Positions 54,961 through 59,463 of a DNA stretch of 64,000 nucleotides are shown here, one piece after another; the stretch's first letter is position 1; each line of letters starts with the position of its first letter. The stretch is from Promethearchaeota archaeon Loki_b32 (lineage in GTDB: Archaea > Asgardarchaeota > Lokiarchaeia > Sigyniarchaeales > SOKP01), in contig NJBH01000016.1 in NCBI GenBank assembly GCA_005223125.1, positions 24,022 to 88,021 of the forward strand, written 5' to 3'. The notes under the pieces are model-generated. The model was given only the letters and a program-made list of their open reading frames with translations, did not search any database and was not told where the DNA came from. A program made the translations under genes and the position numbers.

Positions 54961-57333
54961 TTAAAATATGTTTATCCCAGTCTTGGCTTGAAATGTCTTA
55001 ATTATATAATCTTGAATTACTTGAGGATTATTCATTCTATGATCGATCCAAAATGGAAATTCAATTAAAATAATATCGTGTTTGCTACAAAAATATTTTC
55101 TAAATAAATCAATACAACGCCCATTAATAAAACGCATAAAAGTCGCAAAATCTTTGCGAACATTATTATATATTCTATGGAAAGGATTAGGAAAATAGTA
55201 ATGCTGTGGACCATTGTATTCAGAAGCAATTTTTAATCCATTTAAACTTAGATTTATACTATTGGCTACTCTCTTCAAAACTTTGCTTTTTAATGTAATT
55301 ACTTTATCAATAAACTCAAATTCAAGGTAACCATAAGGAAATTCAATTAAAACAGTATCCCCCTCATTGATAAAAATCCTATTAGATAAAAAATCATTAG
55401 TTATATTTTTTAATACTCGTTTACGATTATTAAAATCATTAATGAAATATGTTTTATGATGTTGTTGATAGAGTAATTTTTGTTCGTTTGCATTTAATAA
55501 TATCAACAATCCTTCATTTAAAATCAATTTTACTTTATTATTTCCTAATATTAATTCATTCTTTATAAATGATATTTTAGAATAACAATCGAAATGAATC
55601 CTCTTATCTGACACAGTCCCTAAAGTATGTAACTGTACCTTTGAAAAAGGACTATTAAAGACAGCTTCAATATTTTCACGATATAGAGATTCATACTTAC
55701 CCTCAGAGCAATATGGACACCAAGTACCTTGTACTATACTATTAGGAATAGCATCCCAAGGTCTATGTTTCTTGGTATTACAAATCCATGTTAATATTAC
55801 TTTAGATGGAGGCGAATGTTTTTCATTAATCATTTCATTGAACTCTTCTCTGGTTGTTACTAAAGATCCTGGTACATTATTTTCTTCTATACCTCTTCTT
55901 CTAGCAAGTTCTACAAAATCATCATAACTCTGACCCACTCGTTCTCCAAAACATTTTGGACACCAACTATGTTGGGAATTAATTGTATCAATTCTTGCAT
56001 CCCAATATGGATGACCTTCTATATTACAACTCCAAGTTAATAAAATTCTAGAAGGAGATTCATTTTTAATTAATTCATTGAATTCCTCTCTTGTTGTTAT
56101 TAATGATCCCGGCACATTGTTCTCTTCTATACCTCTTTTTCTTGCAAGTTCTGCAGCATCATCATAAGTATATTTGGAAGCTTTACTCCACATCAAATCA
56201 TAATAATTTATTATTTCACCAGTTTCAACATCTCTAATTTTTGCTGAATCCCTTGCGAATGTTCGAACCGAATCAACAGAAATATAATCTTTTGGAAATT
56301 CTTTTAATATTGTTTCTTGAATTTTCTGAACAGACATATATGATTCTCCTCTCTTAAATTTATCAACTTCAGTTCTTACTAACATGAATATTCTTTTTTT
56401 TAAGTATTCTGGGATTTTATGTCGTATGATCCCACGAGAATCTTCACCAAGTGAATCTCTACAATTAGAGCAAGGTATTATGTATTGCTGTAAGTTCGCA
56501 AGCGATTCTGAAAATGAATAATAGCATTTAAGACACATCCATTGTAAGATCGAATTTTGATTCTTGTATTCTTTTTCATAATTAGATAATAACTTCAAGT
56601 TCATTTCACGAGCCCTTTCTTTTATTGTTTTTTCACTGAGTGGTCTTTCTGTCTTCTTTGCAAATCGAGGATTTAAATAAGGTAAAATATATTTAATTAT
56701 GGGAAAATCAGAATCAATCCCAGTTTTTCTTGCAACTTCAGCCTTATTTTTTGATATATTATCGGAAATTAATATTGGAGCAAATTTAATTATTTTTTTA
56801 TAAAATTCTGCTGTTGGATTTTTAAGAATACCGAAATTTTTAAGGAGTTCTTTAATTTTCTCTTCTGGAATATTTAATGTCCATTTTTCATTTAAATACC
56901 TAGTCTTAATATAGTCAAGGAATTTCTTATGCCTTCCAATAATTATAATACTTTTTTTTGAATTCCGATTTCCTATACTTTCCATTTCATTATTCATAAA
57001 AACATCTACTTCTTTTGGGATTATATTTTCATTACTACTTATTAACTCCTTGTTTTCTATTTTAGTTGTTCTTCTTATCAGTTCCTTAGACTCTTTTTTA
57101 TTTTTTCTAATTAAATTACCTTCTAATCCAATATATTCACTCAAATTCAATTTTTCTGAATTAATTTTGAATTCAAACCTTTCTAATCCATCATATTTGC
57201 TTAAATCTAGCTTTTTTCGATTATTTTGGAATTCAAAGCTTTCTAATCCATCGTATTCACTCAAATCTGGTTTTTCTGAGGTCACAAAGACAAATTCTTC
57301 ATCATCTTCAGAGTGTCTATCAACATCGTTCAT
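54961..57333 (-). CDS. Multi-zinc-ribbon protein with C-terminal Vsr/DUF559-like PD-(D/E)XK endonuclease domain
   Basis: WMCLKC..CSNC, WSC..H..WCPKC, WIC..H..WCPYC; FDCY...EYNGPQHY...C.KHDIILIEFPFW. Confidence 0.75.
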   Translation of the reverse strand: MNDVDRHSEDDEEFVFVTSEKPDLSEYDGLESFEFQNNRKKLDLSKYDGLERFEFKINSEKLNLSEYIGLEGNLIRKNKKESKELIRRTTKIENKELISSNENIIPKEVDVFMNNEMESIGNRNSKKSIIIIGRHKKFLDYIKTRYLNEKWTLNIPEEKIKELLKNFGILKNPTAEFYKKIIKFAPILISDNISKNKAEVARKTGIDSDFPIIKYILPYLNPRFAKKTERPLSEKTIKERAREMNLKLLSNYEKEYKNQNSILQWMCLKCYYSFSESLANLQQYIIPCSNCRDSLGEDSRGIIRHKIPEYLKKRIFMLVRTEVDKFKRGESYMSVQKIQETILKEFPKDYISVDSVRTFARDSAKIRDVETGEIINYYDLMWSKASKYTYDDAAELARKRGIEENNVPGSLITTREEFNELIKNESPSRILLTWSCNIEGHPYWDARIDTINSQHSWCPKCFGERVGQSYDDFVELARRRGIEENNVPGSLVTTREEFNEMINEKHSPPSKVILTWICNTKKHRPWDAIPNSIVQGTWCPYCSEGKYESLYRENIEAVFNSPFSKVQLHTLGTVSDKRIHFDCYSKISFIKNELILGNNKVKLILNEGLLILLNANEQKLLYQQHHKTYFINDFNNRKRVLKNITNDFLSNRIFINEGDTVLIEFPYGYLEFEFIDKVITLKSKVLKRVANSINLSLNGLKIASEYNGPQHYYFPNPFHRIYNNVRKDFATFMRFINGRCIDLFRKYFCSKHDIILIEFPFWIDHRMNNPQVIQDYIIKTFQAKTGINIF
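55710..56170 (-). repeat. Intragenic duplication, two ~240-bp (80-aa) units
   Basis: YDD..ELAR.RGIEENNVPGSL.TTREEFNE..P...LTW.CN..H..WDA....WCP.C occurs twice; visible at DNA level with a 240-bp offset. Boundaries are approximate. Confidence 0.9.
57121..57280 (-). repeat. 60-bp tandem repeat, about 2.7 copies (20-aa unit)
   Basis: TTCTAATCCA starts at 57121, 57181 and 57241; peptide unit K.[DN]LS[EK]Y.GLE.FEF. Confidence 0.92.
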
Positions 57334-58514: not shown

Positions 58515-58530
58515 GATAAAAACTTAAATA
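58515..58530 (+). promoter_or_regulatory. Putative BRE/TATA promoter for the structured RNA and nuclease gene
   Basis: GATAAAAAC-TTAAATA would place the start near 58550. AT-rich context makes chance matches common. Confidence 0.35.
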
Positions 58531-58552
58531 TCTAACTTTTCTTTTATTTTAT

Positions 58553-58570
58553 AACAAACGGATGTTTGTT
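58553..58570. promoter_or_regulatory. Palindrome (operator or 5' hairpin)
   Basis: AACAAAC-GGAT-GTTTGTT, a perfect 7-bp inverted repeat. Confidence 0.5.
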
Positions 58571-58580
58571 TAAAAAGAAC

Positions 58581-58858
58581 AAGACTGATTTTGGAGGATC
58601 CATTAACCGAGGGGGGAGATCCGCTGGTCTATATGTCTTTTCCGTCTATATTCTTTTGGCCGAGAATATAGCTGGAGACGCCATATAGAGGGGCGGATGA
58701 CCCCTTTCAGATAGTGGATCCTCCAATTAAGATGTTATATTCCTCTAGCGGGCACCGTTGAAGCACGCATGTTTCAATAATATGGCTAAATCAATGCGCC
58801 CTGCTTGCTTTGACAGTATCCGCTGGAGGAGTACCACCTCTTAATTATCTCCGGTCTT
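58581..58858 (+). ncRNA. Unknown structured RNA or 5' leader with two long rod hairpins
   Basis: 46% GC by hand count (129/280 over 58581-58860) against very AT-rich flanks. Hairpin 1 is 58591-58726, hairpin 2 is 58727-58844, closing stem 58581-58587/58852-58858. G-U bias indicates the + strand. Confidence 0.75.
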
Positions 58859-58878
58859 ATTATCAAAAATTACAAAAT

Positions 58879-59410: not shown

Positions 59411-59439
59411 ATGTCTATACTAATAGACATCCTTTTTTT
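59411..59439 (+). terminator. Hairpin plus poly-T terminator
   Basis: ATGTCTAT-ACTA-ATAGACAT followed by CC and T7, between convergent genes. Confidence 0.6.
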
Positions 59440-59463
59440 ATTCATTAAAAACCACTAAAAATT

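Follow-up and report, generated by a model that had tools for sequence, protein, structure and literature searches.

In the hok and tisB mRNAs and in the leaders of T4 homing endonucleases, a long leader buries the ribosome site of a toxic or selfish gene. Purine and lysine riboswitches combine a three-way junction, a loop-loop kiss, and a switching 3' strand. Cis-acting RNA switches are, to our knowledge, barely documented in Archaea, and we found none reported from Asgard archaea in the literature searched. Two further leaders are relevant here. The first, rncO, is the autoregulatory leader of E. coli RNase III itself (PMC3867540). The second is that of type VI retrons, in which the ribosome site of the effector is buried and is freed on infection (10.1101/2025.10.22.683967).

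Here, we describe, from a genome of the Lokiarchaeia (Promethearchaeota), a double-rod RNA that appears to be the 5' leader of a gene for a 160-amino acid PD-(D/E)xK nuclease. The locus lies within a 64,000-nucleotide stretch of DNA, hereafter the window, whose numbering is used for its features (Table 1). Sequence comparison supports a covarying RNA, complementary loops, and two mutually exclusive helices at the ribosome site. We tentatively read the element as a cis-acting, two-state translational switch in the nuclease mRNA, linked to double-stranded RNA (dsRNA).

Table 1. Features of the leader-nuclease cassette, in window coordinates.
Feature	Position	Strand	Evidence or remark
TATA-box-like archaeal promoter	58523..58532	+	core invariant in alignment
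P0, 7-bp hairpin at inferred 5' end	58553..58570	+	100% of cells paired, 2 two-sided pairs
P1 5' strand	58581..58587	+	partner 58852-58858; closes three-way junction in open state
P2, ~65-bp rod	58591..58726	+	identity to window 40-94%
P2 loop kissing strand	58657..58661 (extends 58656-58662)	+	helix 96.4% paired, 3/5 pairs with two-sided change (11 aligned loci)
P3-base junction strand	58725..58732	+	partner of anti-SD strand in open state
P3, ~54-bp rod	58727..58844	+	fold and alignment
P3 loop kissing strand	58784..58788 (extends 58783-58789)	+	alignment
Anti-Shine-Dalgarno (anti-SD) strand, two alternative partners	58839..58852	+	alignment, folding
Shine-Dalgarno (SD) GGAGG plus spacer to start codon	58879..58892	+	sequestered in locked state; 14 pairs
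160-aa PD-(D/E)xK nuclease, Arg-rich helix	58893..59375	+	D85, E99, K101, Q125xxxY129
Terminator-like hairpin then T-tract, cassette 3' end	59411..59440	+	similar in L027, L029, L041, L043, L044

The original prediction, made from the letters alone, described two long hairpins, and its pair counts are reproduced exactly. Hairpin 1 has 65 gapless positions, with 49 Watson-Crick pairs, 7 G-U pairs, and 9 mismatches (1 A-C); hairpin 2 has 39 positions, with 29 Watson-Crick pairs, 5 G-U pairs, and 5 mismatches (3 A-C). The excess of G-U over A-C that was also reported stands for hairpin 1 (7:1) and is weak in hairpin 2 alone (5:3). GC content is 46% in the element and 15% in the flank, the same contrast with AT-rich surroundings that was first remarked upon. 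The minimum free energy (MFE) fold contains both rods and the closing helix that had been suggested to form a three-way junction (-134.8 kcal/mol; z = -11.6), and none of 200 shuffles folds equally well. The minus strand folds more weakly (-119.8 kcal/mol), and the plus strand gives the better fold in 13 of 13 homologues tested. A gapless hairpin scan with 50-bp arms, covering both strands of the 4.1-Mb genome, ranks the two rods first and second genome-wide, on the plus strand only. Two details were misplaced at first. The element does not start at 58581, as the conserved P0 hairpin lies further 5'; standard archaeal promoter spacing puts the 5' end of the RNA at ~58552, ~30 nt before that position. 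Nor do CGCAT and ATGCG cap hairpin 2: the stem instead continues and ends in a 10-nt loop.

We find that the structure is tied to the nuclease across homologues. The protein has 14 close homologues, and upstream DNA is available for 15 distinct loci of the clade, the window included. The double rod is present at 14 of the 15 (L045 is cut at its 5' end), and the exception, L029, retains the last helix only. Among the more distant homologues with upstream DNA, the leader accompanies none of nine. Pairing is maintained even where rod identity falls to 40%. In 11 aligned loci, whose relatedness inflates the shuffle test and means that counts are not independent events, the 110 pairs are 92.8% paired, 51 of them show two-sided, compensatory change, and 0 of 500 shuffles reach the observed covariation (slid controls are ~40% paired). 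Rod identities as low as 40% nevertheless make chance implausible. This covariation and the better plus-strand folds bear out the suggestion that selection acts on a plus-strand RNA structure. That the structure is functional is virtually certain.

Conservation is distributed unevenly over the leader. The junction and P0 sequences are strongly conserved, with the junction deviating in L031 and L053; in the same two loci P1, which is 90.9% paired in the alignment with no two-sided change, has shrunk to ~3 bp. The distance from loop to junction is 65-68 nt in P2 and 58-59 nt in P3 in 13 of 13 loci, L031 among them. Arm lengths are thus fixed while sequence is free, which suggests that the leader may be read by its shape rather than its sequence. 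In L027 (L027:4480-4630), P2 is 47% identical to that of the window and P3 84%, at a dS of 0.39. This suggests exchange or rapid turnover of P2, with its loop and length retained. A covariance model built on the half comprising P3 and the switch recovered L053, which was outside the training set (36 bits, E 3e-5). The L053 nuclease is 43% identical, yet both alternative helices are kept there with other sequence.

The RNA matches no described family. Rfam covariance models, those for SRP RNA, RNase P, and riboswitches included, gave no match in the window at gathering threshold, as had been expected, and at a relaxed E-value the best local matches were far below threshold (E 0.19 or worse). 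ARAGORN called no tRNA or tmRNA. This agrees with the first reading of the sequence, which saw no hallmarks of tRNA, SRP RNA, or RNase P. No description of the RNA and protein family was found in the literature searched.

The P2 and P3 loops are complementary over 5-7 bp, a potential kiss that the original prediction overlooked. Core variants are UGGCC/GGCUA, UGGCC/GGCCG, UAGCC/GGCUG, and CGGCA/UGCCG, and the core of L031 is the mirror image, UGCCG/CGGCA. All five pairs are present in 11 of 13 loci, against a chance of ~4% per single locus. The two exceptions are L034, where the kiss is broken, and L045, which has one mismatch. No kiss is seen in L053. The predicted kiss energy (-7 to -10.5 kcal/mol) is similar in size to the gap between the locked and open states described below. 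The matched arm lengths may reflect the requirement of a side-by-side intramolecular kiss. Since P2 and P3 join without a linker, end-to-end stacking would normally be expected in the junction form. The kiss may then belong to the locked state, which releases seven nucleotides as a linker, or it may act between molecules. It could stabilize either state.

At the 3' end of the leader, the anti-SD strand can pair with either of two partners, the P3-base strand or the ribosome site. In the first case, the junction form, P1 closes beside the base of P3 and the ribosome site is free. The second case, the locked form, is the one chosen by RNAalifold. Every locus has an anti-SD strand that complements the ribosome site of its nuclease gene, and both alternative helices are retained in all full loci. 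The locking helix has 99.3% of cells paired over its 14 pairs with no two-sided change in 11 sequences, so that its support consists of invariance and L053. The P3-base strand forms 8 of 8 pairs with the anti-SD strand in the nine core loci tabulated, and in L053 it has a different sequence with pairing kept. Such mutually exclusive helices are what defines a riboswitch-type expression platform. Sequestration of the ribosome site, as in type I toxin-antitoxin systems, is both predicted and conserved.

The interval between the RNA and the gene contains no terminator, and its sole hairpin is the SD helix, without a T-tract after it. Together with the anti-SD complementarity, this makes the element look like an mRNA 5' leader and not a free-standing noncoding RNA. 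Of the noncoding RNA-nuclease module first envisaged, the undescribed structured RNA tied to a nuclease therefore survives, while its free-standing nature is not supported. Among the roles first suggested for the RNA, that of a dsRNA sensor gains some indirect backing. A promoter scan for an antisense RNA returned chance-level matches, using a sigma-70 model unsuited to Archaea. We consider it likely that the leader controls translation of the nuclease in cis.

Predicted energies constrain how such a switch could operate. Without the kiss, the locked form has an advantage of 3.5-11.7 kcal/mol in core loci, which rises to 16 kcal/mol in L031 and L029. The junction form is the predicted MFE structure for 3' ends up to 58884. 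Nearest-neighbor energies never favor the open state in the full transcript, and a kinetic window or a ligand must therefore be assumed. When a cut in P3 is simulated, the SD becomes costlier to open, at 13-20 instead of 5-12 kcal/mol. Because any cut in a rod leaves the anti-SD strand on the message, cleavage can only lock it. In L029, the rods are lost, the locking helix is kept, and the nuclease gene is intact. A radical SAM gene (L029:4017-5486) stands in place of the rods there, its stop codon 4 nt before the anti-SD strand. We infer that it would couple translation of the nuclease to its own.

We propose the following scheme. The nascent RNA is predicted to fold first as a three-way junction with the ribosome site free. 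After transcription of the SD, the free junction strand would seed the 14-bp helix that buries it, so that the predicted default state is off. The long dsRNA arms would serve as the sensor. A dsRNA-cutting enzyme, either host RNase III or the nuclease itself, would cut the arms, above all P3; the open state could then no longer form, and the message would be locked or degraded. Were the dsRNase titrated or blocked, or were a dsRNA-binding factor to sit on the junction, the open state would last and more nuclease would be made. The cassette would then work by negative feedback or as a guard, much as rncO does for RNase III. That dsRNA or the state of a dsRNase is the trigger has, in our judgment, slightly less than an even chance of being correct. 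The cassette probably serves antiviral defense or self-limits a toxic accessory gene. A more specific version is an Asgard innate-immune guard, in which the mRNA carries its own dsRNA decoy, the twin rods signal whether dsRNA cleavage functions in the cell, and an invader that saturates or inhibits the dsRNase unlocks a dsRNA-recognizing nuclease. We regard this version as rather unlikely.

The AlphaFold model of the nuclease (pLDDT 85.7) has EndoMS/NucS, Hjc, and ACE1 as its best fold neighbors (Foldseek E 0.003 or worse, Z <= 7.5), and the top fold matches all belong to the PD-(D/E)xK superfamily. Across 136 homologues, out of 473 clusters, D85, E99, and K101 do not vary. With a catalytic D...ExK on a restriction-endonuclease fold, the protein is a member of that superfamily. 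It has no match in Pfam (over cut-off), NCBIfam, or PADLOC, and a PDB sequence search with the nuclease profile found none. Leader-linked nucleases form one clade (support 93/90, not starred; 99/95 for a core of 11) and are under purifying selection (dN/dS 0.12-0.34). One of the nucleases (L040:2475-2894) ends at 139 aa with its last strands missing; this and the broken kiss of L034 are possible cases of decay. Upstream of a distant nuclease homologue, L018 carries ~eight tandem 21-nt repeats (~910-1080; G006 C1). A 671-aa protein with three copies of the nuclease domain (P0016) comes from the transcriptome of a eukaryote, Stygiella incarcerata; it could be from a co-cultured prokaryote or a true eukaryotic homologue.

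The nuclease family is linked to dsRNA in three ways: the dsRNA leader, fusions to a dsRNA-binding domain (dsRBD), and an RNase III-viperin neighborhood. The fusions make up a sister clade in Lokiarchaeia (support 100/98, ~24 clusters) that lacks the leader and has a C-terminal dsRBD (Pfam 23.5 bits, cut-off 23; Foldseek to the Loquacious dsRBD, E 5.6e-4). Since they are a separate clade, their specificity need not apply to the leader-linked nuclease. The closest solved folds of the nuclease act on DNA. These PD-(D/E)xK-dsRBD fusions are undescribed (L061:7669-8499 (-), L014:1507-2316, L064:1834-2493, and P0185-P0207), and the one in L061 lies directly behind a type I R-M operon and an M48-type gene. 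A gene run in L060 (L060:1857-8249) comprises RNase III, viperin (NF038283 over cut-off), a nuclease homologue, and a RavA-like AAA ATPase with its partner, and is a candidate antiviral cluster. The nuclease homologue in this run is leaderless and directly follows the RNase III and viperin genes. RNase III, generally rare in Archaea (PMC3867540), is encoded by 142 of the 161 genomes in the class, among them that of the window (G000 C67:35549-36280). It is thus near-universal there, and its co-occurrence with the cassette is not selective.

The main rival to a dsRNA-linked switch, although not mutually exclusive with it, is an RNA that serves as a type III-like antitoxin or as a scaffold. In this view, the junction form (~58552-58860) would accumulate, bind the Arg-rich helix of the nuclease, and inhibit it; the SD helix would merely limit synthesis, and the kiss could build rings or filaments. 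The cassette order of promoter, RNA, nuclease, and terminator, with no protein antitoxin, fits such a system, as does the high conservation of the junction and P0. The Arg-rich helix is found in leader-linked proteins and not in dsRBD-fused ones, but the family consensus has it too, as do leaderless members. The nuclease of L029 is intact without rods, and there is neither a set of repeats nor a terminator between RNA and gene; a repeat scan gave only AT-rich chance pairs and no repeat array. The matched arm lengths would also better suit an intramolecular kiss. On balance, we think an antitoxin unlikely.

A riboswitch or thermosensor, in which a small molecule, an ion, or temperature is sensed at the junction and the rods and kiss are scaffold, is improbable. 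Its topology would be that of a purine riboswitch, with P1 as switch helix, kissing P2 and P3 loops, an invariant junction, and an anti-SD platform. However, the rods are ~eight times longer than such a scaffold needs, the regulated gene encodes a nuclease and is not metabolic, and in L031 and L053 P1 is weak and the junction sequence different.

Still less probable is a precursor resembling a pre-miRNA, whose rods RNase III would dice into guides for the nuclease or an Argonaute. The rods are of pre-miRNA size, RNase III is present, a short-pAgo-like gene exists elsewhere in the genome, and the divergent P2 of L027 is what a specificity module might show. Yet the rods have no match of at least 15 nt elsewhere in the genome, and 13-mers occur at chance level (38 versus 31 +/- 7). 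Viral contigs and phages contain no match, Asgard viruses being poorly sampled. The guide role initially suggested is thus left without targets in the host genome or viral contigs. Furthermore, both arms change together by compensatory steps, and the kiss and SD helix would go unexplained.

The short-pAgo-like gene and its partner (L057/L058, G000 C21:128000-149600) lie beside a HerA/NurA/Mre11/Rad50-like operon, and 12 kb away a gene joins a HerA-like ATPase to a strong dsRBD. Seven nuclease-less genomes contain P2 fragments made up of the 5' arm and tip (L020-L026, ~1486-1578; 47-78 nt, 77-90% identical). In six of the genomes the fragment lies 5' of a gene for a 409-aa glycosidase-like protein, and in one 5' of a Phd/RelE-like pair. 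We do not take these fragments for targets or donors of guides, because they extend through the loop and 14 nt into the second arm, are sense-identical, and differ by G>A and C>T drift. We read them as relics.

The genome of the window has 29% GC, and genes in the window include those for MutS, MutL, and LRR proteins, a content compatible with Lokiarchaeia. One homologue of the nuclease family is likewise annotated as coming from a Promethearchaeota archaeon. In nine congeners, mutL is directly followed by EF-1-beta. In the window, mutL is succeeded by a Zn-finger protein gene, then by an AT-rich spacer and the cassette, and beyond these by genes for an HD and an LRR protein; this change of neighbors places the element in an accessory block. 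The same block encodes a 790-aa protein in which treble-clef Zn fingers recur (DUF4379; window 54961-57333 (-)). A second, partial mutL, 71% identical, stands beside EF-1-beta as in congeners (G000 C38:11734-13264). It represents either duplication or bin contamination and slightly complicates the accessory-block picture.

Neighboring genes vary between loci, and homology starts ~12 nt before the TATA box and ends at the terminator hairpin. The unit is thus a self-contained mobile cassette, probably a defensive one. Downstream of the nuclease, L036 and L038 share a convergent cluster that comprises a radical SAM gene, DUF2997, and a protein of 750-770 aa. Upstream in L031 lies a gene for a DEAD helicase-caspase, which PADLOC matches to PDC-S28. 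The flanks of the 12 loci compared show neither terminal inverted repeats nor target-site duplications, and no reverse transcriptase is encoded by the neighboring genes of any locus. The exact junction pattern found nothing convincing in 399 other representative genomes of the phylum, nor did the covariance model over 134 genomes of the family. Protein-level scans of genome contigs and viral contigs gave no match, and neither did phage and plasmid collections. Searched against the class, the L027 leader gave short, chance-level matches or none; the L049 leader gave short or no matches, as an insensitive query that did not recover the window's genome (G000) either. A search for extra copies found the element only once in this 95.5% complete genome, and it is hence not a MITE.

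That the element acts at the DNA level, as a MITE, a transposon end, an ssDNA origin, or the Frpo-type promoter of a selfish nuclease cassette, is barely credible, as its patchy distribution, changing neighbors, and decayed P2 fragments in nuclease-less genomes are set against a single copy, flanks in which no terminal inverted repeats or target duplications were seen, a TATA box outside the hairpins, and G-U-type one-sided changes, loop-loop pairing, and an SD helix that point to action at the RNA level.

Since the leader shows strong covariation together with a tertiary contact and an evident expression platform, the proposed switch lends itself to tests with RNA made in vitro and with purified proteins, for which host culture is unneeded. 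It further draws attention to a nuclease family that lacks annotation and has links to dsRNA. If the dsRNA-sensing trigger is true, the system would be categorically new. If the guard reading is true, archaeal relatives of eukaryotes would possess an RNA-level dsRNA sensor, with a PD-(D/E)xK-dsRBD family beside it. How Archaea recognize and process dsRNA is an open question (PMC3867540), and our finding bears on the proposed Asgard origin of dsRNA-based silencing (10.1101/2023.12.14.571608).

Each of the known systems shares part of this design. Like rncO, the cassette places a double-stranded 5' leader before a nuclease gene; cutting of the leader would reduce expression, and competing dsRNA substrates would lift this effect. 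It differs in its PD-(D/E)xK enzyme, a rod pair of fixed length, the kiss, and an SD-sequestering switch, and cleavage here is predicted. As in the hybrid RNA of Retron-Vpa2, a three-armed RNA would keep the effector's ribosome site buried until a trigger arrives. Unlike a type VI retron, the cassette is archaeal, has a nuclease effector, and lacks reverse transcriptase, msDNA, and an HTH partner. Type III toxin-antitoxin systems (ToxIN, CptIN, TenpIN) and AbiF similarly consist of a promoter, a pseudoknotted RNA, and a nuclease without protein antitoxin. The present cassette departs from type III systems in that it lacks tandem repeats as well as a terminator separating the RNA from the gene, and in its unrelated toxin fold and predicted SD control; Pfam, NCBIfam, and PADLOC gave no match to the ToxN/CptN/TenpN or AbiF toxin families.

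The junction, kissing loops, and switching 3' strand of purine and lysine riboswitches recur here, with arms of 54-65 bp instead of 6-7, no Rfam match, and a nuclease under regulation. The hok, tisB, and T4 leaders share the long leader burying a ribosome site, here predicted, and differ in that no antisense RNA gene was identified, the product is an enzyme and not a membrane peptide, and there is no homing site. The nuclease shares a PD-(D/E)xK core with a QxxxY motif with EndoMS/NucS, Hjc, and ACE1, its best structural neighbors, although scores are weak and it is a stand-alone protein of 160 aa with an Arg-rich insert. The leader falls outside every family against which it was compared. Its architecture is new, while its kind, a leader that locks translation of a nuclease, is known.
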